A stretch of DNA of 64,000 nt from Minisyncoccota bacterium (GTDB taxonomy: Bacteria > Patescibacteriota > Minisyncoccia > Phycocordibacterales > JABAAK01): contig OZ244939.1 in NCBI GenBank assembly GCA_965222235.1, positions 248,585 to 312,584 of the forward strand. The letters are read 5' to 3'. A program made the translations under genes and the position numbers. The notes under the pieces were generated by a model. It saw nothing but the letters and a program-made list of their open reading frames with translations, was not told the origin of the DNA and did no database searches. Each line of letters starts with the position of its first letter. Position 1 is the stretch's first letter. This document shows positions 10,009 to 42,827 of this stretch, piece after piece.

Positions 10009-10208
10009 CGATGTTATTCACATGGACATTCCCCACCCGCTCCGCCTGTGCTACAGTACGGACATATGGAAATAGATGATGAGACAAAGAAACATATTCG
10101 GCATATATCGTTCTGGGTGCGGCTTTGGTCAATTATGAGTATTGTATGCCTCGTATCTGTTCCCTTTCTGGTAATATACCTCAACATCACCGCCAGTGTT
10201 TCATCCTC

Positions 10209-10754
10209 ATGAAAAACATTGTTGTTCTATATATACTCGGTGCCGTCATGGTGGCTGTGATAGGGTATGTATATATAACCGGCAATGAACACGATCCCGG
10301 TATCCGCACACTTCCTGTGTATCCCGCTGATATTTCCGCAGATGACCCCCGAGCGGCAGAACAGGCTGCACCGCCCGTTCTCAATGCTGAATCACCGGAT
10401 GCGGAGGCAATCCCACAGCTCCCGGCCGGTATGTATGTTGCATACAGCGGGGACGCCGTGCGGGAATATATATCGGCGAACCCAAGCGGGCGGGCGGTAC
10501 TCTTTTTCCATGCCGGATGGTGTCCCACCTGCCGATCCCTGCACAAAGCACTCACTGCCGCCGCGGATACTATACCCCCGGATATCGCCATATTCAAAGT
10601 AAACTATGACACGGAAAAGGAACTAAAACGTATATACCGGATAACCAGGCAGCACACCTTGGTTCTGCTGGACAGCAATCTGCAACCCGTGGACACCTGG
10701 TACGGTTCCCAAAATCTTGATGATGTAATCGCCCGTATTCACCGCGCACAGTAA
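10209..10754 (+). CDS. Membrane-anchored thioredoxin-like protein (CxxC motif WCPTC)
   Basis: FFHAGWCPTCRSLHKAL active-site motif and an N-terminal TM helix. Start at the internal ATG at 10209. Confidence 0.7.
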   Translation: MKNIVVLYILGAVMVAVIGYVYITGNEHDPGIRTLPVYPADISADDPRAAEQAAPPVLNAESPDAEAIPQLPAGMYVAYSGDAVREYISANPSGRAVLFFHAGWCPTCRSLHKALTAAADTIPPDIAIFKVNYDTEKELKRIYRITRQHTLVLLDSNLQPVDTWYGSQNLDDVIARIHRAQ

Positions 10755-10756
10755 CT

Positions 10757-11473
10757 ATGGAACCTTCTTTTCTCATCGCGGCATTTATTGCCGGCTTTCT
10801 TACCGCACTGGCGCCGTGCCAGCTGCCGTTTCTGCCGGTTATCATCGGCGGGTCCGTCGGCGGCGCGCGCCGAAATTCGTACATCATCATCGGATCCCTC
10901 CTTTCCTCAATCGTTATCTTCACCTTCATTATTGAAGGACTCGCCTCATTGTTCTATGTCCCGAACGAGGTGTGGGCATATATATCCGGTTCGCTGGTGC
11001 TGTTTGTCGGCATATCGTTTCTGTTTCCGTCGGTGTGGACGCGCATGCCGTTCATCTCCCGTTTCCTACACACATCCAATACCGCTATCGGCGCGCGCGC
11101 GGCGCGGCGCGGCCATGTCAACGACATGGTCATCGGCGCGGCACTGGGTCCCGCATTCTCGTCCTGTTCACCGACATACCTGCTCATCCTGCCGATACTG
11201 CTGTCATCAGCATTTCTCGAAGGGCTGCTGTACCTCTTCGCCTTTCTCGCCGGACTCGGCGCGGTGCTTCTTTTTGTCGCCCTGCTCGGACAGATGGCGG
11301 TCAGGCGGCTCAATATCATGGCGGACACAAGAGGCTGGTTCAAGCGCATTGTCGGCATTCTCATTGTTCTTGTCGGCATTTCCATACTGACGGGGTATAA
11401 CCGTGTTATTGAAGAACGCCTGCTGGATATTGAGTTTCTCAGCACCTCGCACGTTGAAACGCACATCAGATAA
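10757..11473 (+). CDS. ccdA: Cytochrome c biogenesis protein CcdA / DsbD-type thiol-disulfide transporter
   Basis: Polytopic, with LAPCQLPFLPV and a second Cys motif SCSPTYLL. Sits immediately downstream of the thioredoxin gene. Confidence 0.7.
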   Translation: MEPSFLIAAFIAGFLTALAPCQLPFLPVIIGGSVGGARRNSYIIIGSLLSSIVIFTFIIEGLASLFYVPNEVWAYISGSLVLFVGISFLFPSVWTRMPFISRFLHTSNTAIGARAARRGHVNDMVIGAALGPAFSSCSPTYLLILPILLSSAFLEGLLYLFAFLAGLGAVLLFVALLGQMAVRRLNIMADTRGWFKRIVGILIVLVGISILTGYNRVIEERLLDIEFLSTSHVETHIR

Positions 11474-12428
11474 CGGGATTCAGCGGACTGCCGCCCTGCA
11501 GCACGGCAATGACATTGTTCGCGGCCATTTCAGCCATGCGACTCCGGGTTGCCACGCTCGCCGATGCGGTATGCGGCGTCAGTACAACATTGGACAGCCG
11601 GCGGAGCCTGCGCGGCACCTCGGGCTCATGTTCAAAAACATCCAGACCGGCACCGAAGATGGTCCCGTTTTCAAGCGCCGAAGCGAGCGCCTCCTCGTCA
11701 ATCACGGCGCCCCGGGAGGTGTTCACCAATATCGCGCCCGGTTTCATGTATGTAAGCCGCGTTTCATTCAGGAAGTGATAGGTGATCTCCGTCAGCGGCA
11801 GATGCACTGATATGACATCCGATCGGCGCAGCACATCCTCGGGCGCATCGCACCGCTGCGCGCTGACCGACTGTTCAAGTGCGGGGTTCGCCTGAATGTC
11901 GTAATAGCAGACGGACATGTTGAATCCCTTCCCCGCCATTTCGGCGACCCTGCTGCCGATACGACCCGCGCCCAGTATGCCGAGGGTGCCGCCGCGCAGA
12001 TCAAGCCCAAGCAGCAGCTCCGGCTCCCAGCCGGTAAATCGTCCGCCGCGGACGAAAGTATCCGCTTCCACGACCCGGGTTGCGACCGCGCATATCAGCG
12101 CTATTGTATGTTCCGCAACCGTTTCGGTGAGCACACCCGGCGTGTTGGTCACTATCAGACCCCGATCCTGTGCTTCCTGCACCATAATATTGTTGTACCC
12201 AACGGCATAATTGGCGATGACGCGCATATCGGAGCCGACCGCATCAAGCACTTCCATATCAACGGCGTCAGTGAGCAGTGTAATCATTCCGTCATACGGC
12301 CGTTTCCTGAGCGCGCGGACAACATGTTTCTTCTTCGTGCCGTCGGGCAGTATGTCAAATGTAATGCCTGCCCCGCGCAGCAGCTGCAGACCGGCATCGG
12401 GAATATGACGGGTAATGAGAACATGCAT
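11466..12428 (-). CDS. D-isomer-specific 2-hydroxyacid dehydrogenase (GyaR/SerA-like)
   Basis: NAD-binding GILGAGRIGSRVA motif and family catalytic residues (R, E, H region LPLTEITYHFLN). Confidence 0.75.
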   Translation of the reverse strand: MHVLITRHIPDAGLQLLRGAGITFDILPDGTKKKHVVRALRKRPYDGMITLLTDAVDMEVLDAVGSDMRVIANYAVGYNNIMVQEAQDRGLIVTNTPGVLTETVAEHTIALICAVATRVVEADTFVRGGRFTGWEPELLLGLDLRGGTLGILGAGRIGSRVAEMAGKGFNMSVCYYDIQANPALEQSVSAQRCDAPEDVLRRSDVISVHLPLTEITYHFLNETRLTYMKPGAILVNTSRGAVIDEEALASALENGTIFGAGLDVFEHEPEVPRRLRRLSNVVLTPHTASASVATRSRMAEMAANNVIAVLQGGSPLNPVI

Positions 12429-12497
12429 ACATACTCAGTATATATCACCCATACACATATACGCGCGACTGTACACACGCATGGTATATATACATAT

Positions 12498-13493
12498 ATG
12501 AACGGCACCTTCTTTTCCCTCGGCGATGTCACCACCGACGCGTTTATCACGCTGCAGGATGCGAAAGTGGACTGCACCGTTGACCCCGAACAGTGCACCA
12601 TTTCCATGCGCTGGGGGGATAAGATTCCGTACAGGAGCGTCACCGTTGTGCCGGCGGTCGGCAACAGCGCGAACGCCGCCGTAGCGGCGGCGCGCCTCGG
12701 CATACCGGCCAGCTTTGTATCTTTTGTCGGCGCCGACCGCAACGGTGAGGAATGTGTCGCGGCACTCAAAGATGAAGGAGTGGATACCGCATATATTACC
12801 GCGGAGCCGGGAAAAAGCACCAACTATCACTTCGTACTTTCATATGAAGCGGAGCGGACGATACTGGTGCGGCACGAACACTTCTCATACAAACTCCCTG
12901 AACTCCCGGACACCGTATCCTGGCTCTACTTCTCTTCGGTCGGCGAGGCGGCGGAAACATTGCATGACAATCTGGCGGCGTGGCTTGCCGTCCGTCCGAA
13001 GGTGAAAATGGTGTTTCAGCCGGGAACCTTTCAGATTCGGCTGGGGTATGAACGGCTACAGGATATCTACGAGAAAACGCATCTCTTTGTGTGCAACAAG
13101 CAGGAAGCGCAGCGCATCCTGAAAACCAAAGAATCGGACTGCCGGACGCTGGCATGCAGCATGCGGGCGAAAGGTCCCAAGATTGTATCCGTAACGGACG
13201 GACCGAACGGTGCCTACGCATATGACGGCGAAGCGGTGCTGTTCGTACCGCAGTATCCGGACATATCTCCGCCGAAAGAACGGACGGGTGCGGGTGACGC
13301 ATACACCGCGACACTTGCCGTGTTTCTCGCCAAAGGATACCCGCTCAAAGAAGCACTGCTGCGGGCTCCGATTAACTCAATGTCAGTTGTGCAGCATATC
13401 GGCGCACAGAAAGGGCTGCTCACAGAGCAGGACATACAGCGGTATCTGGACCGGGCGCCGGAGACATACGCAGTTTCAATACTCCCCCGTTAG
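12498..13493 (+). CDS. PfkB-family carbohydrate kinase (ribokinase/fructokinase-like)
   Basis: C-terminal PfkB signature TGAGDAYTATLAV. Start at ATG 12498, inside the longer track ORF. Confidence 0.7.
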   Translation: MNGTFFSLGDVTTDAFITLQDAKVDCTVDPEQCTISMRWGDKIPYRSVTVVPAVGNSANAAVAAARLGIPASFVSFVGADRNGEECVAALKDEGVDTAYITAEPGKSTNYHFVLSYEAERTILVRHEHFSYKLPELPDTVSWLYFSSVGEAAETLHDNLAAWLAVRPKVKMVFQPGTFQIRLGYERLQDIYEKTHLFVCNKQEAQRILKTKESDCRTLACSMRAKGPKIVSVTDGPNGAYAYDGEAVLFVPQYPDISPPKERTGAGDAYTATLAVFLAKGYPLKEALLRAPINSMSVVQHIGAQKGLLTEQDIQRYLDRAPETYAVSILPR

Positions 13494-14146
13494 CGACGGC
13501 GCGTAACATATGCCATGCCGCGGTGTGCAAGGCGCTCAATATATGGGCTGGCGATGATTGAAAGAAGCAGAAAGAGAATGAACGCGGTGAGAAACATGCC
13601 GATGGTTCTGCCCTCACTCTCCGTGAGAAGCTGCCTGCCGATAAGCACGCCGGGAATGAATATGCACCCTCCCCACAATATGGTGACAATCATATCCCGA
13701 ATGATGAACTGCAGGACGGTCATCCGATAGCGGAGCGCAAAGAAAAAGATGGTGATTTTTGTAAACGGCAGCACCTTCAGGACAAACAGAAGGAGCAGCG
13801 GGAATGATTGGTATTCCAATTCATACTCCTTAATCCGGTTGCAGAAGCCGACGAGGAATGGCGGCACGGACAGACATTCTATCTGTTTCCGAAACAGACC
13901 GTACCGGCGGATACACTTAACGCCGAGAAATACCGCGGTATCATAGAATACAACGCTCAGAAACATCAACAGAACGGCAAACAATGATGTATCGCCCGAT
14001 CCGAACAGCACACTTATGAAATATATACCCACTTCACCGGTGAGAATCGGGGTGAGCACCGCAATGAGATACTGATGCTCCTCCACAAATATGATGAACT
14101 CATTAAATGCTTCCGGTGAGGATATTATACCGAGAAGATCAATCAT
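13490..14146 (-). CDS. DedA/VTT-like integral membrane protein (tentative)
   Basis: 218 aa, multiple TM helices. The family assignment is a by-eye impression only. Confidence 0.35.
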   Translation of the reverse strand: MIDLLGIISSPEAFNEFIIFVEEHQYLIAVLTPILTGEVGIYFISVLFGSGDTSLFAVLLMFLSVVFYDTAVFLGVKCIRRYGLFRKQIECLSVPPFLVGFCNRIKEYELEYQSFPLLLLFVLKVLPFTKITIFFFALRYRMTVLQFIIRDMIVTILWGGCIFIPGVLIGRQLLTESEGRTIGMFLTAFILFLLLSIIASPYIERLAHRGMAYVTRRR

Positions 14147-20545: not shown

Positions 20546-20593
20546 ACAGGCAGTGTAGCAAACATTCCGTCAATACAGAAATCACTCAGACCC

Positions 20594-21737
20594 AAGTTCA
20601 AACAAATAATAGAACACCTGTCATATACCAAGTAATACTGGAGACATATGACAAAAGCAAAGAAAAAGAGACGGGAACCGTTCACCCGTCTGAATATTCA
20701 TGAACGGAGTAGTATTGAAGTGAGATACTGTGCTGACAAGAGATCCCTGCGGGAGATAGCGAAAGAGTTGGGCAGGTCACCGGGAACCATACATCGGGAA
20801 ATAGGGGGAAAACCGAGAAAAGGAGTCGGACGGTACTGCGCGCTGAGGGCACAGCGGGAAGCAGAGAAAAGGATACACACCCGGGGGAGGAAAGGAGTGC
20901 TGACCGACAGAGCACTCCTTGGGTATGTGCGGGAGAAGATGGAGGAAGGATGGTCTCCCGAGCAGGTGAGTATTCGTCTTCCCCGGGAGTTTCCGGAGGA
21001 CACAACCATGCGGGTATCTCATGAGACGATATATACCTTCATATATGCGCAGATTCACCAAAGCGGACACGGTATCGTGAAACCGGGGTATCTAGACTTA
21101 CGGTCTCTTCTGCCGAGAAGAAGGAAGAGACGCATACGGCAAGGAGTGAGAAACACACAGAAAACAGAACGAAGAGCGGCCTTGCCCTCCATTGAGGAGA
21201 GACCGGGGATAGAGGGGGTAATCGGTCATTGGGAAGGTGACACCATGCTCTCAAGGAAAAGCAGCGTTAGGGTAAAGAGTATGAATGAAAAGATGACCGG
21301 TCTGGCATTCTTTGAGAAAACAAAAGACGGTACCGCTGAGTCCTGTGACGCGGCAATCATCAGACGAATGCGCGCTGTCCCTCCGAGATACCGCAAGACC
21401 CTCACCCAGGACAGAGGGGCGGAGAATAGGGGGTACCGCACCGTTGAAAAAGAACTCAGTCTCTCCTGCTACTTCGCCCATCCGTACTGCTCTCATGAAA
21501 GAGGATCAAACGAGAACACCAACGGATTGTTCCGTCGGTGTTTCCCGAAGGGGACTGACTTTGACAAAAGCAATGACCGTGACATTGCCAAGGTTGAGTA
21601 CCTATTGAATACCCGTCCCAGGAAACGCCTTACTGGTCTGACCCCTTACGAGGTATTCTACCGCATGACCGGTGTCAATCTCCAGAGGATGGCATATTAC
21701 AAACTGACAGGTGTTCAATTAGAAGTTTGAATGTAGG
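20594..21737 (+). mobile_element. IS30-family insertion sequence, copy 1 (1144 bp; imperfect ~27-bp terminal inverted repeats TTCAAAC...AACACCTGTCA)
   Basis: 100% identical to 42828..43971. The IRs were found by comparing the left end with the reverse complement of the right end. Confidence 0.85.
20648..21730 (+). CDS. IS30-family DDE transposase (360 aa)
   Basis: N-terminal HTH, HWEGDT and NENTNGLFRRCFPKG..LNTRPRK motifs typical of IS30 transposases. Confidence 0.9.
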   Translation: MTKAKKKRREPFTRLNIHERSSIEVRYCADKRSLREIAKELGRSPGTIHREIGGKPRKGVGRYCALRAQREAEKRIHTRGRKGVLTDRALLGYVREKMEEGWSPEQVSIRLPREFPEDTTMRVSHETIYTFIYAQIHQSGHGIVKPGYLDLRSLLPRRRKRRIRQGVRNTQKTERRAALPSIEERPGIEGVIGHWEGDTMLSRKSSVRVKSMNEKMTGLAFFEKTKDGTAESCDAAIIRRMRAVPPRYRKTLTQDRGAENRGYRTVEKELSLSCYFAHPYCSHERGSNENTNGLFRRCFPKGTDFDKSNDRDIAKVEYLLNTRPRKRLTGLTPYEVFYRMTGVNLQRMAYYKLTGVQLEV

Positions 21738-24878: not shown

Positions 24879-25012
24879 GACTCGTCCCCGCCACTGTTAT
24901 TTCCAAACACCGTCAATGGTATCAAGCGACCGAATTCGACAGCGGAGGCAGGTACACATAAACAACTTTCAACCGTATGATATAGCAAATGTGTACCATC
25001 TTTACACTCCAG

Positions 25013-25096
25013 TGCCCAGGAGAGGACTTGAACCTCCACGGGATTACTCCCATACGCTCCTGAAGCGTACGCGTCTACCAATTCCGCCACCTGGGC
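25013..25096 (-). tRNA. tRNA-Leu (anticodon CAG), type II long variable arm
   Basis: Reverse complement GCCCAGGTGGCGGAATTGGTAGACGCGTACGCTTCAGGAGCGTATGGGAGTAATCCCGTGGAGGTTCAAGTCCTCTCCTGGGCA. Confidence 0.85.
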
Positions 25097-26265: not shown

Positions 26266-27990
26266 ATGAAATTTACTCGCAATCTTAAAGACATGGGAAG
26301 AAATGATACTGCAATCGCGGGCGGAAAAGGATTCTCTCTCGGTAGAATGATTCAAGCCGGCATACCGGTGCCGGATGGTTTCGTGATTCTTTCAACCGTC
26401 TTTGAGCATATTTCAGAAACATCAGGATTAAAATCTGAAATTAAATCAATACTTTATTCTGTAAACAGTAATGATAGTGACACAATCAAATATGCTTCGG
26501 AAAAAATTAGAAAACTTGTATTCAAATCAGAAATTCCCGAAAACATTTCTCATGAAATAATGAGCAATTTTGACCTTCTTCATTCCCAATATGTTGCTGT
26601 ACGATCATCAACCCCCACAGAAGATTCAGCGGATGCGACCTGGGCCGGCATACTTGAGAGCCATCTTGAGACAACAAGAGAAGATTTGTTGGAAAATATA
26701 AAGAAATGCTGGGCATCATTATTCACACATCATGCTATTCAATATGGTTTTGAAAAAGGGTTGGATGAGAAAAATATATCTATTGCGATTGTTATACAAA
26801 AAATGGTGAAAAGTGAAAAGTCCGGAGTTGCTTTTTCTGTTCATCCGGTGACACAAAACAGGGAGCATATGATAATTGAAGCCGGTTCGGGTCTTGGCGA
26901 GGCTGTAGTATCCGGCAAGACTATACCGGATTCCTACATTGTCAGGAGAAAGTCTCTGACAATTGTCAGTAAAAGCATTCATGGGAAGCGGAGTATTCTC
27001 TCTGAAAATGAAACATTGAAACTCTCGGAGATGGTTCTCACTGTTGAAAATCTTTTCGGTTTTCCTGTTGATGTTGAATGGGCATATGAAAAAAGAAAGT
27101 TCTTTATTCTACAGAGCCGCCCCATCACAACACTAACGGAAATAGAGAACCGGATGGTTTTAGTCGGCAAACGAAGAACAGACAAAATGCATGCTGAATT
27201 ACGTATCAAGGGGTGGACAGAGGGATTAAAAAAAGAAATCGGCACCGGTTATAGAAAGATAGTTATAAACTCGGGCGGTGAACATTTTGTAGATTCTGAA
27301 AGTAGGGATGAAATAAATGAATTACTTTCTCAAAAAAGTTTTCAGGATTTTAAGTTTTATTCAGATAAAATGCGTGTATTTAGAGGTGAGAATTTTTCTG
27401 ATTTATTCACATACTTTCTTATAGCCAGACACACTGCTGACGGAATCTATAAAACATGTTCCTCCGAACAACAAAAAGCTATTGAAGAGTGGCGCAACGA
27501 TGAAAATCTCTTTCAGCCACTGGATGAATATATAAAAACAAATCCTGTTAATAAAAGTAAGGAACATTGGAAGTGGGAATTTTATAACGGAAAAATGGTT
27601 CTTACTGAACAAAATGAAAAAAACGTTGATCAAGGCGACAAAGGTGGTTTACTGTCTAAAAAAACACATAAAGAAATAAAAGGTGAGCCGGTGTACGGGG
27701 GTGTGGTTCACGGAACGGTAAAAATTGTTGAAAACTTGGATGACCTTGCAAAAATTACTGAAGGAGATATAGCAGTCGCCCAAATGATGAGCCCTGACTG
27801 TCTTCCCATTATTAAAAAATCCCGGGCAATTATCACGGATGAAGGCGGAATATTAAGTCACACCGCAATTATGGCAAGGGAAATGGAAAAGCCCTGTATT
27901 GTTGGGACCGGAACAGCAACTACAATATTGAAAGATGGGGATCAGATTAAAATTGATGCGGCATCCGGCATGATTCACATCTTGAGCTAA
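26266..27990 (+). CDS. PEP-utilizing phosphotransferase: PPDK-N-type ATP-grasp, unique ~190-aa middle region, C-terminal swivelling phospho-His domain (rifampicin-phosphotransferase-like architecture)
   Basis: N-terminus ...AGGKGFSLGRM...VAVRSSTPTEDSADATWAGILES...FFILQSRPITT. C-terminus GGILSHTAIMAREMEKPCIVG with the catalytic His motif. Confidence 0.7.
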   Translation: MKFTRNLKDMGRNDTAIAGGKGFSLGRMIQAGIPVPDGFVILSTVFEHISETSGLKSEIKSILYSVNSNDSDTIKYASEKIRKLVFKSEIPENISHEIMSNFDLLHSQYVAVRSSTPTEDSADATWAGILESHLETTREDLLENIKKCWASLFTHHAIQYGFEKGLDEKNISIAIVIQKMVKSEKSGVAFSVHPVTQNREHMIIEAGSGLGEAVVSGKTIPDSYIVRRKSLTIVSKSIHGKRSILSENETLKLSEMVLTVENLFGFPVDVEWAYEKRKFFILQSRPITTLTEIENRMVLVGKRRTDKMHAELRIKGWTEGLKKEIGTGYRKIVINSGGEHFVDSESRDEINELLSQKSFQDFKFYSDKMRVFRGENFSDLFTYFLIARHTADGIYKTCSSEQQKAIEEWRNDENLFQPLDEYIKTNPVNKSKEHWKWEFYNGKMVLTEQNEKNVDQGDKGGLLSKKTHKEIKGEPVYGGVVHGTVKIVENLDDLAKITEGDIAVAQMMSPDCLPIIKKSRAIITDEGGILSHTAIMAREMEKPCIVGTGTATTILKDGDQIKIDAASGMIHILS

Positions 27991-28188: not shown

Positions 28189-29928
28189 ATGATACAATAC
28201 CAATCAATGGGTATGCTTCGTTTATGTATTTTGGCTGTTTGTCTTGCGGCAGGGCTACATTTTGGGTATGAGGCATGGCAAACATATACGCAACATGGAG
28301 TGCCGCTTAAAACGGTTGCAACCTATGCTGTACCAAGTATTACTCATAACGGTATTGAATACACCATTACTGACGCAGGGTTGCAGGGCATCAGTGACAA
28401 ACACCGGAACAAACTGCTGCAACTTGCTTACTTTGCAACAGTTGCGCGAATTGATCCGCTCCTTGCCTTACCGGGTGTAGACCTAGAAGTATTTCGTGCG
28501 GTTATTGATGAGATAGAAGCGTCACAGGAACGGGTCACGTCCGTGTATAGTCCCGAAGACCGGAAGATGATTCGAATGTCACTGTATCCGATTTCATTCC
28601 TCAAATCGCTGCATGATCTGGAGCAACTACGTCGACAGGTTGTGGAAACCCCATCGTTTAGTGATACAGAGACATATCAACGACAGTTCGTTGAAACCTA
28701 CGAACTATATATAGAAAATATAGAAACTTTGCAACATGCGATTGAAGTGCTTGTTCCTGATGCAATCAAGCGAAGCACAATCCGCTTTCATACGGGAAAC
28801 TCAAGTATGGGATTTATTGCAAACACACTGGCCAAGTATCAGGACGGTATCACTCAGGTATATGAAACACAACTTGATCGGTTTCGCTGTTATAAGGGGG
28901 TAGCTAAATACTGTTTTGAAATTACCCGACCGCAGTTACCATCAATCGTACAGTCAACCGCATCGGACGAGTATAAGAATACAGTCATGCAACATCAAAC
29001 TTTTATTGAGGCGTTTCGGCAAGATCCGTATCGCGGATACAGTCACCCGTATGCCAATGTAGAGCTGTCTACGAGCAGGTGTGGTGACCCAGATAAGCCG
29101 GGTTACTACTACCTGTGGTGGCGTGAAGACGATTCAGGATTAGCTATTTTTCGCCCTGATTTGCTACACGAGCTATTTTTCTATGATTTTTGGCACGGAA
29201 AACAGGCTGATTGGCAGTATGCGCAAGTATACCGAACGCTTCGTGGTCCGCAGTATACCTACCAGCCAATTGCAAGCCATTATGTCTGTCCGGATCTTGG
29301 GTTAGATATGGCCACCATATTGTCAATGCTCTATGTAGATGAGAATAAACTACACATAGTACCCGTTGGGTCTGAACCACAGCCCGAGATTGACCCACTC
29401 ATTGATGCAGCTAATTTCGCATACGATGAATTGACTGACTCACAGCAACTTATCCAAGTAGCGATTGAGGTATATATTGATGCATTGCATGCGCTGCTAA
29501 CCTCTACATCAGAGTCAGAATTGTATGAATACATCGGTACTACCGCTACTCAAACGGCGCATGACCTGGTCACCGTATACTATGCCCGAACTGCCTATGT
29601 TCCGGATGTATTGATGAGTGTAGTCAGTGATAACGAAGCGGTTGCTAACTATGCGTTGCATGGCACATCAACCGGATTAGACGAGTTGCTATTACTACGA
29701 ACCGTACCAATGGTGTTGTATGGCGGTTTCACCCCGACAATTCAACCACAACCTCACACCTTTGTCCGTGAATTTATCTCTGAACCGCCAGATATTCTCG
29801 TTACCTGGCCAGATTTAGAAATTGTAGATACAGCAACATTTGTCCGCGAGCTACAGAAGGCTGAGCGGGTGAAGATTGATATGTCTGCCTCTGTTGGCAC
29901 TGTGTATCCAACCAACTCGTCTAACTAA
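28189..29928 (+). CDS. Hypothetical large protein (579 aa) with N-terminal signal anchor
   Basis: N-terminal hydrophobic helix, rest unrecognised. Part of the island. Confidence 0.45.
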   Translation: MIQYQSMGMLRLCILAVCLAAGLHFGYEAWQTYTQHGVPLKTVATYAVPSITHNGIEYTITDAGLQGISDKHRNKLLQLAYFATVARIDPLLALPGVDLEVFRAVIDEIEASQERVTSVYSPEDRKMIRMSLYPISFLKSLHDLEQLRRQVVETPSFSDTETYQRQFVETYELYIENIETLQHAIEVLVPDAIKRSTIRFHTGNSSMGFIANTLAKYQDGITQVYETQLDRFRCYKGVAKYCFEITRPQLPSIVQSTASDEYKNTVMQHQTFIEAFRQDPYRGYSHPYANVELSTSRCGDPDKPGYYYLWWREDDSGLAIFRPDLLHELFFYDFWHGKQADWQYAQVYRTLRGPQYTYQPIASHYVCPDLGLDMATILSMLYVDENKLHIVPVGSEPQPEIDPLIDAANFAYDELTDSQQLIQVAIEVYIDALHALLTSTSESELYEYIGTTATQTAHDLVTVYYARTAYVPDVLMSVVSDNEAVANYALHGTSTGLDELLLLRTVPMVLYGGFTPTIQPQPHTFVREFISEPPDILVTWPDLEIVDTATFVRELQKAERVKIDMSASVGTVYPTNSSN

Positions 29929-31172
29929 AACTCCAGTTTGATGCTTTTGTTCTTATCCTTTACTTCGTAGGTCGTGTCAAAGTAGAGTCTCGGCGGATTA
30001 AATAAACCAGCTTCGATGGCCTGCTTTAGAGTTACTCTGTGTGAAATCTGGACAGCATCAAGCGCGCTAAGTATACGTTCTCGTAATGATGATGTATCCT
30101 TAATACCGTCACAAAGCACCAGTGTGATATCTAGTAGTGCAACAATACGGTCACCAGTACGTATCTCACGCACGATGACATGTATTACCGGCTTGAGTTC
30201 GGTACTGAATACTGCCAGAGCAGCTTGTAGGTATTCAATTCTAAGTTCCGTCCCTCGTACGCGAACAAAATCTACTCCACTACGACCGGTGATTTTGAAC
30301 CTCGGTTTATCAAGACCACAAACACACGGCTCCTTGAGCAGAATCCCACTATCGCCAGTTTGATATCTAATCAATGGGAGGGGGTATAGGGGGGGGTTGA
30401 GGATGGTTATCGCAATCTCATTTGTAGAGTCAATATCGACCACAAAATCCTCATCGTTGATGTGCATGATGGTATAATCTTCACCACAGGCTGGCGTGTG
30501 AAAACCAAACGCTCCGGAGGATTCAATACTCCCAAAGTGGTTAAAAATTTGAGCCATTGGATACTGCTGTTTGAGTAGTTGTAGGGTGGTTGGAGTGAGG
30601 GCTTCACCACCGAGATCCAGTACCTTAAATTGCTCAAGCAGCTTCATGTTTTTGAGGTGTTGAGGCAACATTGTGGCAATTGATGGCGAAGCAGCTAATG
30701 TATCAAATGTTTCAGTCTGTAACAGTTCTTCGCAATACGATAATTGATGTGGGTCAATTGACATTACTTCAATCCCCGATGAGCGTATGGATGATGCCCA
30801 GAGAGGGGTTGTTGTGTAATTCCAGATAAGGAACATTCTTTTGGTGCCCCACTGTTGTAGTGTGCGATAGAATGAAATTGCATATTCATGCAGCCATACA
30901 AAAAAAGGTTCTCCCGAGGTTGATCCTGAGGATGAATTTAGCAGCGAAAGCTTTTGTGGTGGTACGAATATGTGGATACCTTGGGTGCGTGCAGCGACAA
31001 AAACAGCTTTGGTGACTGGTGGGAGTTGTTGTAGATCGGTTATGTCGGCAATGGTTGGACAGACCGTGATACCGGCTAATCGCCAATGTGTTTGGTATAA
31101 ATCGCTGTAGTCATTATTCCATGCAGCATTGATGGCGGCTTGGAGCTTGAACATTGTTTCATTCTGATACAT
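29925..31172 (-). CDS. PaaK/CapK-family adenylate-forming enzyme (phenylacetate-CoA ligase / F390 synthetase-like)
   Basis: P-loop SSGSTSGEPF, downstream YQTGD motif, length ~415 aa. The start is either ATG 31172 or 31154. Confidence 0.65.
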   Translation of the reverse strand: MYQNETMFKLQAAINAAWNNDYSDLYQTHWRLAGITVCPTIADITDLQQLPPVTKAVFVAARTQGIHIFVPPQKLSLLNSSSGSTSGEPFFVWLHEYAISFYRTLQQWGTKRMFLIWNYTTTPLWASSIRSSGIEVMSIDPHQLSYCEELLQTETFDTLAASPSIATMLPQHLKNMKLLEQFKVLDLGGEALTPTTLQLLKQQYPMAQIFNHFGSIESSGAFGFHTPACGEDYTIMHINDEDFVVDIDSTNEIAITILNPPLYPLPLIRYQTGDSGILLKEPCVCGLDKPRFKITGRSGVDFVRVRGTELRIEYLQAALAVFSTELKPVIHVIVREIRTGDRIVALLDITLVLCDGIKDTSSLRERILSALDAVQISHRVTLKQAIEAGLFNPPRLYFDTTYEVKDKNKSIKLEF

Positions 31173-31641
31173 AGTGTGAAAGCGGGTTAGATAGGCGTAT
31201 GACCTTTGACTCCCTGAGGTCAAACGACCTTCCGAGCACGAACTCATCCTCATCACTATCTGACACTAGAATAAGTTGTAGAGGTGTAGTTACTTTGTGC
31301 CGGCTCTCAAGTGCTTTTAACAAGTAAGGAAGTACACTGATTTCAGACACTATGCATGTAGCACCGCTGTAGGTATACGCCTGAACTGTCCAGGGCAAAT
31401 CATACACTGATCCGCACACCAGCGGAATCCCAGTTAACATAGTGACTGAAAGAATTACAGGTTCTAGGTGTCTCTCGGGCGGCAGAAAACTAATAATTGC
31501 CTCCGGTCGGTTGGTATCTAAAAACAGTTTTAATTCTGGCCAAACCAAATCGTTCACCGAGACAATTTTAAGTGACCCGTCTGATTGTCTCACTGGTATC
31601 AGTTGCGGGACATCAGATTTTACCAACGAGTTACTGCCCAT
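31159..31641 (-). CDS. Hypothetical protein (160 aa) immediately upstream of the adenylating enzyme
   Basis: Its start codon lies inside the conserved 3' UTR shared by the two small peptide genes. Confidence 0.45.
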   Translation of the reverse strand: MGSNSLVKSDVPQLIPVRQSDGSLKIVSVNDLVWPELKLFLDTNRPEAIISFLPPERHLEPVILSVTMLTGIPLVCGSVYDLPWTVQAYTYSGATCIVSEISVLPYLLKALESRHKVTTPLQLILVSDSDEDEFVLGRSFDLRESKVIRLSNPLSHYVSE

Positions 31642-31685
31642 AAAATCAAACTACAAACATTTTTAGATTATCCATTACTTATATA

Positions 31686-31940
31686 CTAAAGGAATCCGCC
31701 GCATCCGGCAAAGAGCACTTCATCTGAATCGTCAGCACTCTCCAAGTACTCAAGGTAATCCATTGTACCGAGTACGTCACACTGTAGACTTGATTGAGCG
31801 ACGGTATCATCGGTGTTAGATGAAGAATATCCCAACAATGGAGCTGTTTGCTCAGCACTTATCCACTGCAAACCAAAAAACCCTAATACCACTACAACAA
31901 AAAATACAATGCACTCCACGATTGTCTTTGTTTTAGTCAT
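31686..31940 (-). CDS. Small secreted/membrane-anchored peptide P1 (84 aa) with conserved acidic Cys-containing C-terminal core
   Basis: N-terminal TM/signal, then a Ser/Thr-rich stretch, then VAQSSLQCDVLGTMDYLEYLESADDSDEVLFAGCGGFL. Paralog of 34354..34614. Confidence 0.55.
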   Translation of the reverse strand: MTKTKTIVECIVFFVVVVLGFFGLQWISAEQTAPLLGYSSSNTDDTVAQSSLQCDVLGTMDYLEYLESADDSDEVLFAGCGGFL

Positions 31941-32506: not shown

Positions 32507-34153
32507 TCACAAGATTCCTTGCCGGCGGATTGTATCGTAGGGAACAGTCTCTAAATTTTCCCGGTCAATTAAAATCCACGGATTGTGTCTTAATGGGTGA
32601 TACTCTACAGCACAAACATTGACCTCGTCCAACACCCGCCGATAAGGTTCCAAGTTAATGGCAATGTCCATGGTAAGCAATGCTGACTTGAGATTATTGT
32701 GCAAACACCGCTGCTTCAATACATACCATTGATAGTAAGGTCTGCAATACCCCATGCGTTCTTCTTCCCACCATTGAACGGATTCAGTGTTATCTTGATC
32801 ACGAATAGAGGTGGTAATGTAACACCAAGGCAACGCCTGAAACATATGCAGACCAAAACGGACTCCTTCACGGGTGAGTCGTGAATCGCCCGGTATGACA
32901 AGAGAGACACTCTGCCCCAGGATTAATAAGGCAGTTAACCCGATGATGATAATTTGATGCAGGCGTTTTGCGGGCCAATGTATAGGACATTCGTGTCCCA
33001 GGAACACAATAAGTAGTATCACCACAGCTACCGCCGGAAAGAAATATTGAATTAATACGACCGAATAAATATGAAATATGAACAATGCGCCGATCGCAAT
33101 ATATCGTAACGGTTTTTTACTCAACAATAACCAAATGATGCCCCCATGTATGGCTATGACTGTTAAGGCAAGTGGTGTGTGCAATTGGTCACCGACGATC
33201 GGGAGTCCCAGGTCAAGTGATTTAAATATTTCCCCCCCCCCCAACCACGAATCGTTCATTTTAGAGCTTAGTGATAAGATATAGGTCATCATAAGCACCC
33301 ATCCCACGGTCATAATTTTATTTGGCAAAAACAGAAGAATGAAATTGATTATGCAAACATAAAACATCACATGGCCATAGTAAAAATCATTATGGGTTAA
33401 CAATCCCACCAGGACTATGTGCCACACTGCAGGTACCAACAGCAGCATGTGTCCCAAAACCAGACGGCGCGAAAGCACGGCAACCAGGGCTCCGGAGAGA
33501 AATAGCATCAACACAATACTCCAGATGTGATATCCGTACTCTGAAAAAATATAATATTCATAACAATTTTGAAACCAGATGGGACAGATGTACTCCCCAA
33601 CCTGCAAAGGAGTGACGATTGATAGGGCTGGGTTTTTCAGGGCAAAAACTAAAAATGCAATTGAAGCGATTAATAGGTACGGTGCCAATTGACTGTTTTT
33701 AAACTCATGTACACTAAACAGTCGTTCGTATCCGGTAAAATATTTACGGAATGGCGACACATTCAACATGACACGTTGACCGATAGTTTTGACAAGTAGC
33801 CACAAACCGACACCCAGTACAAACCAATGAAGGTATGTATGTTCAAGGCTGGTATGTATAGTGGGATCTATGTAGCCCAGAAAAGCGGTGATAATTGACG
33901 GCAGCAAGAGTAACCATGCTGTTGTTGTATAACCACGATACATCTGTATGCCGCTGAGGAGAAACAATAATAACAACCCCGCGTACAAATACATAAAGGA
34001 ATAGCCCACCGGCTGTATAGTCAAATCGGACCCTAATATTGCTTTGCTGACATAGGGGGACTCAAGGATAACGAATGCTGTGATCAATGTCGTCCAATAT
34101 ATGACTGTGCCGGTCTGTTTGGTCAGGATGTGCTTTATGATATACATCGGCAT
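32507..34153 (-). CDS. Hypothetical polytopic membrane protein (548 aa, >10 TM)
   Basis: Highly hydrophobic ORF directly downstream of peptide P2. No family recognised. Confidence 0.5.
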   Translation of the reverse strand: MPMYIIKHILTKQTGTVIYWTTLITAFVILESPYVSKAILGSDLTIQPVGYSFMYLYAGLLLLFLLSGIQMYRGYTTTAWLLLLPSIITAFLGYIDPTIHTSLEHTYLHWFVLGVGLWLLVKTIGQRVMLNVSPFRKYFTGYERLFSVHEFKNSQLAPYLLIASIAFLVFALKNPALSIVTPLQVGEYICPIWFQNCYEYYIFSEYGYHIWSIVLMLFLSGALVAVLSRRLVLGHMLLLVPAVWHIVLVGLLTHNDFYYGHVMFYVCIINFILLFLPNKIMTVGWVLMMTYILSLSSKMNDSWLGGGEIFKSLDLGLPIVGDQLHTPLALTVIAIHGGIIWLLLSKKPLRYIAIGALFIFHIYSVVLIQYFFPAVAVVILLIVFLGHECPIHWPAKRLHQIIIIGLTALLILGQSVSLVIPGDSRLTREGVRFGLHMFQALPWCYITTSIRDQDNTESVQWWEEERMGYCRPYYQWYVLKQRCLHNNLKSALLTMDIAINLEPYRRVLDEVNVCAVEYHPLRHNPWILIDRENLETVPYDTIRRQGIL

Positions 34154-34353
34154 ATCTGTAAAAAGTATTCATGATGGATGACATGTGTACTCCGTGTGTT
34201 TCCGAGGCAGGGTTCGTAATGAGTAATATACAATAGATTCGGTGGATACTGGATAGAATCCGAACATTTCGACAAAAAGTATCGTGACCACACACCAATA
34301 AAATCAAACTACAAACATTTTTAGATTATCCATTGTTTATATACTATCATATA

Positions 34354-34614
34354 TTAAAGGAACCTCCCGCATTCGGCAAAGAGCGCTTCATCTGAATCGT
34401 CAGCACTCCCCAAGTACTCAAGGTAGTCCGTTGTGCCGAGTACGTCACACTGTAGACTTGATTGAGCGACGGTATGTGTATCAGTAGAATCGGTGGATGA
34501 GTTAGAGAATTTGCCAGATCCTGAAAAGGCGGATGTCAACACCAGGAAATATATTGAGCTGATGAAAAATCTTGTAAAAATGAAACGCAAATGATATATA
34601 ACCATGACTACCAA
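34354..34614 (-). CDS. Small secreted/membrane-anchored peptide P2 (paralog of P1)
   Basis: C-terminus VAQSSLQCDVLGTTDYLEYLGSADDSDEALFAECGRFL. The track start is a TTG; the likely ATG start is at 34605. The 3' half of the gene and 45 bp downstream are near-identical to the P1 locus. Confidence 0.55.
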   Translation of the reverse strand: MVVMVIYHLRFIFTRFFISSIYFLVLTSAFSGSGKFSNSSTDSTDTHTVAQSSLQCDVLGTTDYLEYLGSADDSDEALFAECGRFL

Positions 34615-34663: not shown

Positions 34664-35962
34664 TCAGAGCCCGATAACATTGCGCAAACGCTTCTCCTGC
34701 CGGAGACGAAGCTCGGCGTAGAGCAACGGATTCCGCATTGCGAGAATCTGCAGCGCCGCAAGGATGGCATTCTTGGGACTGAGAACGGTGGTAACCGGTG
34801 TCTCGCTCGGCGTACGAAGAGACGACCACACATCCTCGGGAAGTTCCCGCCACGTCGCGGGAACAGTGATTACTGGCACGGTACACTGAGCGGACAGGGT
34901 CGGTCCCGCACCGTTGCTCCTCCCGCAGTATACGATGACCACGGTATCAGGAACCTCTTGAACCAGTCGTCCGATCACCTCATAAGCCGTCACCGGATCC
35001 TTATGAAGCGAACAGGTTACCGTCTGCACACTGCACACCCCGTTCGCATCGTACGCCGCGAGCGCATCCTGAAACGGCTTCAGCTCATCGGATGCTGATG
35101 CCCGCCAAAGAATGATTCGCTGATGCGGCACGGTGAAACGCTCGGTCAGATTGGCTACCAGTCGGTAACTCGTGGTGACGGTATTGAGGTCAACGCCGTC
35201 GCGGTAGAGCTGCTTGTCAAGGTGCCGCTCGTGGTCAACCACCCGCCACGAATCGTTGTCGATCACGTCCGCGAGCACCAACTTGTCCTCCATGTTGGTG
35301 CCGAACTCCACCTTGAAGTCAACGAGCCGTCGCCCGACAATCCGCCACGCCTGCTCCAAAATGAGAAAGGCCTTGATGGCGATTTCGCCCATCCGTTCAA
35401 TATCTCCCGGTGAATTCCGCAGAGGAAAAGCATTAAGAGAACGGAACGGTGCCTGTTGATGGATCGGCCGATTGGGAAGGTATAAATCCGCATGATCCGA
35501 CTCAAAACGAATGAGTGGATCGTCCGTGGGAAGATCAGACCCCTCCCACGTCTTGCCGGAAGTCTTCAGGAAAAACTCCAACAGAAGACGCGGAAACACG
35601 TGACCCTTGTGGAGCCCCGGATGACGCTTGAGGAACGAGCCGTGTGCTTCACGCCGGACGACCACCTCGTAGTGAATCATGTCGCACCGCTCCGAGAGAA
35701 AGCTCGTCTCGTTCAGCTCCTGAATGAACGCGACAGGGAGACGGTCCGACACCTTGAGCAAACGGAACACATTCGATGTGGTGCGGTTCGAAAGTGCCGC
35801 CTTGCCGGTGATAACATCGCGCTTGGCGCCGTCGCCGGCAGTCACGTCGTCCTTGGACTCGATAATCACCTGTCCGGACTTCTCCGTCGCGAAGACTTTC
35901 TTGGTCTTCCCTTCGGTCAACAACTCTCCGGCAACTACACCATTGTTCATTGCACTGGTCAT
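34664..35962 (-). CDS. Bifunctional SAICAR synthetase (PurC) + AIR carboxylase (PurE) fusion, PAICS-like
   Basis: N-terminus GKTKKVFATEKSGQVIIESKDDVTAGDGAKRDVITGKAA (PurC). C-terminus ...VVIVYCGRSNGAGPTLSAQCTVPVITVP... (PurE fold). Strong SD AAGGAGGAAACG before the ATG. Confidence 0.75.
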   Translation of the reverse strand: MTSAMNNGVVAGELLTEGKTKKVFATEKSGQVIIESKDDVTAGDGAKRDVITGKAALSNRTTSNVFRLLKVSDRLPVAFIQELNETSFLSERCDMIHYEVVVRREAHGSFLKRHPGLHKGHVFPRLLLEFFLKTSGKTWEGSDLPTDDPLIRFESDHADLYLPNRPIHQQAPFRSLNAFPLRNSPGDIERMGEIAIKAFLILEQAWRIVGRRLVDFKVEFGTNMEDKLVLADVIDNDSWRVVDHERHLDKQLYRDGVDLNTVTTSYRLVANLTERFTVPHQRIILWRASASDELKPFQDALAAYDANGVCSVQTVTCSLHKDPVTAYEVIGRLVQEVPDTVVIVYCGRSNGAGPTLSAQCTVPVITVPATWRELPEDVWSSLRTPSETPVTTVLSPKNAILAALQILAMRNPLLYAELRLRQEKRLRNVIGL

Positions 35963-36600
35963 CGTTTCCTCCTTCTAAGGAAAAGAACTGGTAATCAATC
36001 CGCCCAATCTCCCACTGAAACGGGAGCAGTTGGATCTGCAATAAATAATACCAGAATTCCGTAAAAACACAACGAATTGATTATCAATAAAACTATAATG
36101 AAAGACAACTGATGGGAAAGCTCACTATTGTGCTTCAGCAACATTCAGATAATATTCATCATCTGTCGTTTGAAACAGACAGGTGCCTTTGCTTTGACTT
36201 GCTTTCCGTTGTCTTTCTCTTGAAGTACACCTTGGCTTTTGTGTTGCCGCGGGGCACCTTTCTCCTTTTTCAAACTGTTTTTTTGAGTTTTAATGCTATT
36301 CTCTATTGGAAACTTGGAAAGAAGAATGTATGGTATATTGCGAAACATAAAAAAACTCATGGAGGAACATTCCGTGAGATGAGACATCAAACGCGAAACA
36401 GAAAGGAGTCCGAGGGATACCATACCGTTTTCGGATTCTCCCATATGACATTAACGGAACGGAAGCCTGTGGCAGTAGTTGGTTCCGGCTCAACGGTGAA
36501 ACTGGGATCAAGGAAAACAGCACGAACGAACGGGGATACCGTGATACCGATACCCTCCGGTGCGGTGAGATACGCTTCGCCGGAGATTTATACTGTCCAG

Positions 36601-36684
36601 TGCCCAGGAGAGGACTTGAACCTCCACAGGATTACTCCTATACGCCCCTCAAGCGTACGCGTCTACCAATTCCGCCACCTGGGC
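36601..36684 (-). tRNA. tRNA-Leu (anticodon GAG)
   Basis: Near-identical to tRNA-Leu(CAG) at 25013..25096, differing by C34G, A38G and a compensatory pair in the variable arm. Confidence 0.85.
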
Positions 36685-38357: not shown

Positions 38358-38888
38358 TTATCCACTCAAGTTCGGCAGTCCTATTTTTCGTAAAGGGAGA
38401 TGATTAAAATAGCAAGAACACCCTCGTATTGAGAGTATGTAATTCAGGACATCTTTATATTCTTCCTTTTTAAACCAATCATTGAGTATATAAATATATT
38501 CAACTTTCACCCTTAACTTTGAAAGCAGTTTTCTGTATTGTTTTACTTTAAAATCACATGTTTGCAATTTTTCATCTGTAGATCCGGATGTTCTTTGAAA
38601 CTTTATTTCTAAAATGAAAAAAGTGTTATTTTTTATCACAAAAATTGCATCATCAGGTAGTAATTTTTTGGTAATATATTTTCTATAATCTATACCCCTA
38701 CCTTTCAAATAGTCATATAGCCCGTGTTTTCTGAAAGATGTCGCAACATACTTTTCTTTGTAATGTATATCAATGTCATTCTTAATGGTGTATCCTTTTT
38801 GTTTTGAAAGGAAAGAAACAAGATCCACCTCTCCTTCAAAATACAAACCTGTCTTTGTGCTCTCGCCTCCTACACCACCGCGCCTCAT
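38358..38888 (-). CDS. Putative type II restriction endonuclease
   Basis: AT-rich small ORF whose ATG overlaps the stop of the upstream DNA methyltransferase (ATGA). No family recognised; the call rests on context. Confidence 0.45.
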   Translation of the reverse strand: MRRGGVGGESTKTGLYFEGEVDLVSFLSKQKGYTIKNDIDIHYKEKYVATSFRKHGLYDYLKGRGIDYRKYITKKLLPDDAIFVIKNNTFFILEIKFQRTSGSTDEKLQTCDFKVKQYRKLLSKLRVKVEYIYILNDWFKKEEYKDVLNYILSIRGCSCYFNHLPLRKIGLPNLSG

Positions 38889-39709
38889 AGTGCCAACTGT
38901 AAGGTCCCCACACAATCATTAAACCTACTTTTGCTTAATTCTAAATATTTTCGCTCTTTGTCAAAGCCGATAAATTTTCTCTTGTGGTTAAAAGCAGCAA
39001 TTCCTGTTGTGGAACTTCCTGCAAATGGATCTAACACAACATCTCCTTCGTTTGTACTCGCTAAAATAATTCTTTCCAACAAGTTAATCGGTTTTTGTGT
39101 CGGGTGTTTTCCGTGTTGTTTTTCATTGTTCCTCGGGGTGTTGATAGACCACACCGATCGCATCTGTTTTTTGGGTGTTTTCATCGTATCCCTGCTCCAA
39201 TCTCCTTCTTTCATAAGGGCATAATTAAACACTTGTTTACTTTTTTTATCTTTCTTTGCCCAAATTAATGTTTCGTGACTCGCAGTAAACATTCTGCAGG
39301 ATAAATTAGGCGAAGCATTCGGTTTGTACCATGCGACATCGTTGAGTATATGGTATCCTTCAAGCTGCAATGCAAAACCGCACTGATAAATAGAGTGATA
39401 AGTGCCGCTAATCCAGATGGTCCCGTTCGGTTTTAACACCCTCTTACAGGCACGGATCCAGTTTCTTTGAAATTCAAAATCTTTTTCTGTCCCCTTACTC
39501 TTATCCCACGATCCTTTGTTTACGCTAACTCTTTTACCTGCATGAACAGAGAAACCGTCATTAGACAAATTATACGGCGGATCTGCAAAAATAAGATCAA
39601 CGGAGTGCTCCGGTGTTTTGTCCAATAAATTTATGCAATCACCCTCATACAGAGTAAAATGAGGTGAATTTTCTTTATGAAAATATGGTTTTATGCCTGA
39701 AAGCCTCAT
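38885..39709 (-). CDS. DNA methyltransferase, beta-class N6-adenine/N4-cytosine (DPPY motif precedes the FxGxG motif)
   Basis: LIFADPPYN (motif IV) followed by C-terminal VLDPFAGSSTTGIAA (motif I). Start at the internal ATG 39709. Confidence 0.75.
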   Translation of the reverse strand: MRLSGIKPYFHKENSPHFTLYEGDCINLLDKTPEHSVDLIFADPPYNLSNDGFSVHAGKRVSVNKGSWDKSKGTEKDFEFQRNWIRACKRVLKPNGTIWISGTYHSIYQCGFALQLEGYHILNDVAWYKPNASPNLSCRMFTASHETLIWAKKDKKSKQVFNYALMKEGDWSRDTMKTPKKQMRSVWSINTPRNNEKQHGKHPTQKPINLLERIILASTNEGDVVLDPFAGSSTTGIAAFNHKRKFIGFDKERKYLELSKSRFNDCVGTLQLAL

Positions 39710-39734
39710 ATATACAGTATATGGCAAATTTTGG

Positions 39735-39760
39735 ATATATAGATTTGAAGGATGTGACAA
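39735..39760 (-). promoter_or_regulatory. Candidate sigma70-like promoter for the methyltransferase-endonuclease operon (TTGTCA ... TATATA)
   Basis: Hexamers read on the minus strand ~25 nt upstream of ATG 39709. The spacer looks slightly short (~14 nt). Confidence 0.3.
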
Positions 39761-39855
39761 TTTGTGCACAATTTCTACGCCAAATCGTCTAAAACTCACT
39801 ATTCTTCTTTGCTTTCTTCTGTAAGATGTTTTATGCCCCCCTCTATCCACTCAAG

Positions 39856-42777: not shown

Positions 42778-42827
42778 ATATGCATAATATACCGCAAAAA
42801 TACCGCACACCCAAATAACTACCCCCT

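Follow-up and report, generated by a model that had tools for sequence, protein, structure and literature searches.

A predicted grasp-X-His dikinase with a rare middle module in a 64-kb stretch from a Minisyncoccota bacterium

The gene analyzed here lies at positions 26266-27990 on the forward strand of a 64,000-nucleotide stretch of DNA from a Minisyncoccota bacterium (contig OZ244939.1, positions 248,585 to 312,584), and this whole stretch is referred to below as the window. The gene is a single open reading frame (ORF) for a protein of 574 amino acids (aa), in which an ATP-grasp domain of the pyruvate phosphate dikinase (PPDK) type is followed by a small middle module and a C-terminal swiveling phosphohistidine (His) domain. 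Sequence comparisons place this predicted dikinase in a broad, uncharacterized branch of the dikinase family, found in the candidate phyla radiation (CPR, or Patescibacteria) and the DPANN archaea, whose members we call grasp-X-His proteins, X being the intervening module. The comparisons that follow refer mainly to phosphoenolpyruvate (PEP) synthase (PEPS) and rifampin phosphotransferase (RPH). The features of the gene, in window coordinates, are as follows.

26266-27990, + strand: complete ORF (574 aa and a stop codon) for a member of the dikinase superfamily with the layout 'ATP-grasp - X - swivel His', from the ORF listing
26266-27141, + strand: PPDK_N-type ATP-grasp nucleotide-binding domain, residues 1-292 (PF01326, E 2.1e-77; PEPS and RPH matches in the PDB)
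27154-27609, + strand: middle module, residues 297-448, the presumed acceptor-binding domain (AlphaFold2 model; no family or fold match)
27490-27498, + strand: W409-R410-N411, the signature motif by which the middle module is recognized (conserved among 43 module carriers)
27610-27672, + strand: flexible linker from the middle module to the His domain, residues 449-469 (low model confidence; rich in Lys, Gly and Asp)
27673-27987, + strand: swivel phosphohistidine domain at the C-terminus, residues 470-574, containing the motif TDEGGILSH (PF00391; aligns to PEPS residues 381-481)
27859-27861, + strand: codon of H532, the predicted phospho-carrier His, which shares an alignment column with His825 of RPH-Lm (the RPH of Listeria monocytogenes) and His421 of Klebsiella PpsA

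The two end domains were recognized much as an earlier note on this DNA, made from the letters alone, had described them. The PPDK_N domain occupies the N-terminus and ends in FFILQSRPITT at residues 279-289, and the mobile domain of the PEP-utilizers (PF00391, E 6.3e-24) covers residues 498-568, with the sequence GGILSHTAIMAREMEKP quoted in that note at residues 527-543. The Pfam scan found no credible domain between the two, and the matches in the NCBIfam and PDB sequence searches were confined to them. Hidden Markov model envelopes built from relatives spanned residues 1-292 for the grasp domain and 470-572 for the His domain, which leaves 177 residues (293-469) unmatched, and the protein ends only two residues past the His-domain envelope. 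The note's statement that there is no PEP/pyruvate-binding barrel was also upheld: the chain stops after the His domain, and tblastn of the window with four barrels gave a best E value of 1.3. A split or frameshifted PEP synthase was thereby ruled out. The same type of search found no RPH rifampin-binding domain in the window (best E about 1), and a scan for promoters and terminators gave chance-level signals only. Two samples contained the identical 574-aa protein, which is recorded in one case on an NCBI contig of 641 kb and in the other on a Logan contig.

The catalytic residues of RPH-Lm have been defined experimentally as Lys22, Arg117, Thr136 and His825 (PMC4844700), and an alignment of 41 sequences maps them to K21, R113, S132 and H532 of the present protein. 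The columns of K21, R113 and H532 were invariant in all 41 sequences, which cover PEPS, RPH and the grasp-X-His family, and the S132 column contained only Ser or Thr. The swivel motif T/SxxGGxxxH, as defined in PMC12167813, is represented by TDEGGILSH. The protein thus carries both the grasp residues (Lys and Arg) and the swivel His that mark members of the PEPS/PPDK/RPH dikinase superfamily. At the position two residues before the His (H-2), it has a non-phosphorylatable Leu, where RPH has Met, PEPS has a regulatory Thr, and most relatives have Thr.

A search with the full-length protein gave 6,995 matches at E <1e-10. The best 120 of these 6,995 matches all contained PF01326 and PF00391 alone, except for a weak PF02350 match in one protein (P0015). 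The named matches within the CPR belonged to Paceibacterota, Yanofskybacteria, Taylorbacteria, Jorgensenbacteria, Uhrbacteria and Falkowbacteria, and those beyond it to DPANN archaea and a few others. Full-length relatives of this layout measured 569-704 aa, and their aligned identity to the target was 39-49%; the nearest was about 48% identical, so the target has no close relatives. True PEPS made up one of three forms of the superfamily in 55 genome loci; the others were fused grasp-X-His proteins and split systems, where a grasp ORF of about 320 aa adjoins one to three X-His ORFs. In some relatives (P0006, P0005, P0015 and P0125), one ATP-grasp domain was followed by two pairs of a module and a swivel His domain, and in some genomes two or three different X-His ORFs adjoined one grasp-only ORF (loci L014, L024, L032 and L039). 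These tandem and split arrangements suggest that several acceptor modules draw on a single ATP-loading unit. A broad additional branch of the dikinase family had been anticipated in general terms by Stogios et al. (PMC4844700), and the target falls within the CPR/DPANN group of grasp-X-His proteins with a module of the WRN type, a group that has no name and is defined here.

The grasp and His domains were joined end to end for a rough neighbor-joining (NJ) tree of 41 sequences and 418 columns with 50 bootstraps. The tree contained an RPH-like clade (support 94), a PEPS clade of 11 sequences (support 74) and a grasp-X-His clade (support 50). The target lay outside both the RPH clade and the PEPS clade, and a grouping with bona fide PEP synthases, which the earlier note had named as a finding that would speak against it, was not observed. 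Midpoint rooting made the grasp-X-His family sister to PEPS. This placement agrees with the scores of the end domains, which were slightly better for PEPS than for RPH both in NCBIfam (best 362 versus 284 bits) and against the PDB (8a8e, E 1.8e-74, versus RPH-Lm, 1.7e-64). The target nevertheless scored below every curated NCBIfam cut-off, including the equivalog cut-offs for PEPS (NF005057, 362.5 bits versus 598; TIGR01418, 350 bits versus 739.75) and those for RPH (NF041857, 284.3 bits versus 999; NF000283, 186.9 bits versus 1700).

If the likeness to PEPS were taken at face value, the protein might be regarded as a minimal PEP synthase that phosphorylates pyruvate via a non-barrel domain. 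Besides the scores and the sister position in the midpoint-rooted tree, the relatives keep the GG-x-T-S/C-H motif, and one of them directly follows a pyruvate-kinase-like gene. Such an enzyme would have to work with neither a barrel nor any barrel similarity, however, its scores fall short of the PEPS equivalog cut-offs, and CPR genomes carry canonical PEPS as well (L042, L049). The great diversity of middle modules across the family also suggests a range of acceptors, and we therefore give this reading very little credence.

The full-length AlphaFold2 model, built on an alignment of 20 full-length relatives, folded three domains confidently (mean pLDDT, the predicted local distance difference test score, 82.6). 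Residues 297-448, or about 150 aa, formed a confident fold in the order strand, helix, two strands, five helices and final beta-hairpin, and residues 450-467 had pLDDT values below 50, which is linker-like. The earlier description of an unrecognized middle region of about 190 aa thus stands as regards the lack of a family match, and has to be revised in size to 177 aa between the envelopes, of which about 150 aa are folded and the rest is linker. A domain-only model of the module gave the same fold, with a core pLDDT above 90 and a pTM of 0.75. When the module alone was compared by Foldseek, the best E values were 1.3 (PDB) and 0.16 (BFVD), so no fold match was obtained, and neither an RPH chain nor a barrel was among the 50 matches listed. 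The module had no Pfam or NCBIfam match, and eleven middle modules searched alone against Pfam at E values up to 1 gave only scattered single-member noise.

Profile comparisons were made with A2, the alignment of the middle module, using Listeria monocytogenes rph (RPH-Lm) and Klebsiella ppsA as references. With full-length RPH-Lm, the hhalign alignment was confined to PITTL, where the grasp domain ends (probability 1.9%), and with Klebsiella PpsA the probability was 0.07%, which indicates no barrel similarity. A degenerate barrel in the middle region, the other finding that the earlier note had set against itself, was accordingly not seen in either the profile or the structural comparison. 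Among the module types, the profile of the larger B type matched the target (type A) with an E value of 2.5e-4 when the database consisted of about 45 sequences, and the hhalign A-B probability was 2.7%. The B-type module was clearly related to the modules of other fused forms (96%), and these in turn were marginally related to domains of the rifampin-binding type (7%); type A compared directly with the rifampin-binding domain gave no match. The chain from A through B and the fused forms to the rifampin-binding domain is tenuous, and a very remote common ancestry of all the intervening regions is conceivable from these profiles. Such an ancestry would fit the statement of Stogios et al. that the intervening region of dikinases diverges rapidly (PMC4844700). 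As far as profile comparison can tell, the module of the target is not a rifampin-binding domain in any testable sense.

The module was described in the earlier note as unique, which did not hold. A middle-module profile, searched exhaustively over 1.84 billion cluster representatives, recovered the target itself (E 1.4e-59) and 40 clusters (at 50% identity) at E <=1e-3, and the W-R-N module is therefore rare and not unique. It occurred in three settings: in fused proteins of 570-660 aa, in longer proteins (about 990 aa) whose two His domains give the order grasp-module-His-module-His, and in stand-alone proteins of about 300 aa that consist of module and His domain only. Among 43 module carriers, R410 was conserved in all 43, W409 in 42 and N411 in 39. 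G326, G338 and I406 were also conserved, and the whole signature is present in the target. R410 was invariant across both module subgroups of alignment A1, and the invariant polar and aromatic residues in A2 were R303, E324, N335, D343, W409 and R410. By analogy with Arg666 in RPH, R410 might help to hold the transferred phosphate.

These results bear directly on the proposal in the earlier note that the protein has the architecture of RPH and might inactivate rifamycin or another antibiotic by phosphorylation. The architectural part was borne out in the order of the domains and in the top whole-model Foldseek match in the PDB, which was RPH-Lm (5hv1, E 6.7e-33, via both end domains), and it failed in the middle module, which is unlike the rifampin-binding domain, and in the scores, which lie below the cut-offs. 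A resistance enzyme of the RPH type might also be argued from the non-phosphorylatable Leu at H-2, which resembles the Met of RPH and not the Thr of PEPS, and from an in-silico resistome screen in which CPR homologs were labeled rph-like (PMC8651080). The rifampin-binding domain of about 445 aa is the defining feature of RPH (PMC4844700), however, and the target has in its place a module of about 150 aa with no similarity to that domain by hhalign, by module-type profiles or by Foldseek. Its RPH equivalog scores lie far below those required, it falls outside the well-supported RPH clade, and its CPR relatives are found in housekeeping contexts. An antibiotic phosphotransferase is thus barely credible here, and rifampin in particular is very unlikely to be the acceptor.

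The base composition of the gene sets it apart from its host. The host has a GC content of about 55%, and the flanks of the region contain the bacterial housekeeping genes gatB, gap, gatA and pyrG. The GatB protein of the window is 66-72% identical to homologs encoded on contigs of 600-850 kb, of which the named ones come from Candidatus Kaiserbacteria or Parcubacteria, and on this sequence evidence the host is a Kaiserbacteria-like CPR bacterium. The dikinase gene has a GC content of 38.4% and a third-position GC content (GC3) of 33%, compared with GC3 values of 59-68% for host core genes and 41-48% for the adjacent low-GC genes. The value lies below both groups, which indicates a separate horizontal acquisition from a low-GC donor.

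Taken together, we consider it rather likely that the protein is an accessory, horizontally acquired dikinase of the CPR and DPANN lineages, related to PEPS and RPH and composed of an ATP-grasp domain, a variable module and a C-terminal swivel His domain, and that it carries out an RPH-like phosphotransfer to an acceptor. Phosphate would probably be passed from ATP, via the swinging His, to a target bound by the small middle domain and not by a PEPS-type barrel. By analogy with RPH, PpsAB and HpeHI, ATP would be bound in the grasp domain, and His532 would attack the beta-phosphate, with the gamma-phosphate released as inorganic phosphate (Pi). The His domain would then swing on the disordered linker (residues 449-469) to the middle module and hand the phosphate to the acceptor in a site that would include W409-R410-N411. 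The net reaction would be ATP + acceptor + H2O -> AMP + Pi + phospho-acceptor. The analysis shows the make-up of the domains, the conserved catalytic Lys, Arg and His, the placement in the family, the rarity of the module, the identity of the host and the foreign base composition; how the enzyme would cycle, the use of the module to hold the acceptor, and whether this copy works are inferred.

Several observations weigh against this interpretation. The grasp-X-His clade, which has the target at its base, received an NJ support of only 50%, and no characterized member of the short CPR grasp-X-His clade was found in the literature. Each genome placed its dikinase relative in a different setting (after dnaJ, after secA, after a PK-like gene, with Peptidase_M23, or alone), and no conserved neighbor among these loci pointed to a substrate. 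Of 151 near-invariant columns, 18 deviate from the consensus in the target, more than in any other complete sequence of the alignment. Several of these departures lie in the nucleotide-binding half of the grasp domain, and they include Q129I in the AGQ motif (Q in 40/40 other sequences), R156H (R in 39/40 others), N135E (N in 38/40 others) and the change of SSATAED to SSTPTED (A116T/T117P), all at positions that are conserved across PEPS, RPH and the family. The middle module was also the shortest, with about 20 residues of the relatives absent. The substitutions in the grasp domain imply that the activity may be reduced or altered, and this copy is possibly impaired.

A recently acquired copy that is losing function, with an intact frame and an ATP-grasp domain damaged by substitutions, is for these reasons a serious rival, although it is not the leading reading and we regard it as rather unlikely. 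The strongly foreign GC3, the distance to the nearest relative and the bracketing of the locus by two nearly identical IS30-like copies (described below) would all be in keeping with it. Decay is harder to reconcile with a frame that is intact over 574 codons, with the identical protein in two samples, with the retention of K21, R113, H532 and the WRN motif, and with the confident folding of three domains; some of the changes are also conservative.

The acceptor might alternatively be a protein, in which case the enzyme would be a regulatory autophosphorylating kinase or a phospho-relay, as has been proposed for VadK or like the transfer from enzyme I of the phosphotransferase system to HPr, and the module would serve for protein docking. 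VadK, a barrel-less PPDK derivative that acts as an autophosphorylating kinase and interacts with metabolic enzymes (PMC13400623), provides a precedent, the module is small and largely helical, and no conserved context of a small-molecule pathway was seen. The loci of the relatives contained no conserved partner gene, however, the Foldseek matches listed included no likeness to the helical HPr-binding subdomain of enzyme I, and all characterized members with the order grasp, domain and His (RPH, HpeHI, PpsAB and CreHI) phosphorylate small molecules. Protein relay is in our view improbable, and transfer to an acceptor held by the module remains the preferred reading.

The only same-strand neighbor of the dikinase gene is an ORF for a 579-aa protein that has four relatives. 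It belongs to a cassette at 28189-31940 and 32507-34614, which encodes this 579-aa protein (+ strand, with a hydrophobic segment at its N-terminus), an adenylating enzyme of the PaaK/F390-synthetase-like kind (- strand), a 160-aa protein and a small peptide (both - strand). The cassette of 579-aa protein, PaaK-like enzyme, 159-160-aa protein and small peptide is kept in three related CPR genomes, beside clpB or another gene, and the 579-aa protein is 58-69% identical in them (loci L067-L069, about 10001-13900 in each). Its proteins had no Pfam match except a weak one to AMP-binding, and it could be a peptide- or surface-modification system. No dikinase was found within 10 kb of the cassette in the three related genomes, tblastn included, and no homologs of the island proteins were found near any of the 58 other dikinase loci. 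The cassette is thus independent of the dikinase, and a functional link between them was rejected. The earlier note had drawn on the island for a role in resistance or in the modification of small molecules or peptides; given that the cassette is conserved without the dikinase, this context is uninformative about dikinase function. A role in a defense system was likewise rejected, as PADLOC gave no match for the dikinase or its neighbors. At one locus of a relative (L065, 4887-8949), the closest-type relative P0023 lies between a gene for a 351-aa pyruvate-kinase-barrel protein and an APH-family kinase gene; no other context gives a hint of pyruvate/PEP metabolism, and this one was encountered a single time.

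Two small ORFs of 84 and 86 aa lie in the window at 31686-31940 and 34354-34614, both on the - strand. Their hydrophobic N-termini differ, and their acidic C-terminal halves are nearly identical (TVAQSSLQCDVLGT.DYLEYL.SADDSDE.LFA.CG.FL). Both ORFs are inside a DNA repeat of about 180 nt (31637-31807 and 34295-34475; 92-94% identity) that includes about 50 nt downstream of each. One copy precedes the gene for the 160-aa protein and the other a gene for a 548-aa multi-pass membrane protein; the relatives have a single peptide gene of this kind.

An IS30-like element is present in two direct copies (20591-21737 and 42824-43971), which are 99.9% identical over 1,148 bp and encode a 360-aa transposase with an HTH_38 domain. 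The copies bracket about 21 kb that contain all the low-GC genes, four tRNA genes, a purC-purE fusion and gatA; gatB lies just outside the first copy, so gatA and gatB are separated by the bracketed segment. The fusion (34664-35962, - strand) is one ORF of 432 aa with SAICAR synthetase (PurC) at its N-terminus and a PurE-like AIR carboxylase at its C-terminus, an order better known from animal PAICS than from bacteria. Two tRNA-Leu genes (24998-25096, cag, and 36586-36684, gag, both - strand) share 92% identity across 99 nt and enclose both the principal low-GC stretch (about 25.1-34.6 kb) and its neighbor of normal GC content, the purC-purE gene. Insertions beside tRNA genes may have built up the region that the two enclose. 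A second low-GC patch (38%) at 38358-39850 (- strand) encodes an N6/N4 DNA methyltransferase (PF01555, E 4e-60). An overlapping ORF of 185 aa lies directly downstream with a tRNA-Met gene beside it, and the methyltransferase and this ORF may form a small restriction-modification unit.

The scaffold and the chemistry of the dikinase are familiar, and the presumed acceptor module is the unfamiliar part. If active, the protein would be one of the smallest natural swiveling-His dikinases, and one whose acceptor domain has no counterpart among solved structures. Despite their tiny genomes, CPR and DPANN organisms keep many grasp-X-His genes, sometimes with several acceptor modules per ATP-grasp domain, so that finding the acceptors would fill a metabolic gap for these uncultured lineages. 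A bolder and distinctly tentative possibility is that the W-R-N module is an undescribed acceptor-binding fold and that ultra-small cells have, in the grasp-X-His proteins, a modular toolkit for phosphorylation. The fused forms, the tandem module-His repeats behind one grasp domain and the split forms that share one grasp protein would then be variants of a system in which each module directs ATP-derived phosphate to a different metabolite or protein. The group would in that case constitute a third branch of dikinases, beside PEPS/PPDK and the RPH/phenol kinases, with new chemistry to discover. The annotations 'PEP synthase', 'PEP/pyruvate-binding' and 'rph-like resistance gene' arise from the two shared end domains only, and none of the three is justified for this gene; members of the CPR/DPANN branch are among those to which the resistome screen applied the rph-like label loosely.

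Compared with known systems, the target would work most like the RPH, HpeHI and PpsAB dikinases, in which an acceptor domain precedes the C-terminal swivel His. It shares with RPH-Lm (PDB 5FBS/5HV1; NF041857) an ATP-grasp domain at the N-terminus, a non-barrel middle and the C-terminal swivel His, together with the conserved catalytic Lys, Arg and His, and the ping-pong dikinase chemistry is likely to be alike. It differs in its middle domain, which is one third of the size, and in its separate clade. Both of its end domains are most similar in sequence to those of PEP synthase (TIGR01418; 8A8E, 2OLS), but in PEPS the His domain comes directly after the grasp domain and is followed by the PEP/pyruvate TIM barrel, whereas the target has its module before the His domain. 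VadK (Rv1127c), which is confined to mycobacteria and related genera (PMC13400623), is likewise a barrel-less derivative of the superfamily that keeps the grasp and His domains. Its His is not C-terminal and no module separates it from the grasp domain, as seen in the layout of the NCBIfam model PRK05878, in which residues 470-571 of the target align to positions 353-455 of 534. The two-component kinases HpeHI, PpsAB (phenylphosphate synthase) and CreHI offer the parallel of a separable unit of acceptor domain and swivel His that is served by an ATP-grasp unit. The H subunit of HpeHI and PpsAB alone performs the phosphotransfer to the acceptor (PMC12167813), and this is mirrored by the stand-alone module-His proteins of about 300 aa, the tandem units and the split grasp/X-His gene pairs among the relatives. 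HpeH and PpsA have an RPH-like acceptor domain of about 450 aa, act on phenolic substrates and are encoded in catabolic operons, whereas the target is fused, carries another, small module and lies outside any catabolic context.

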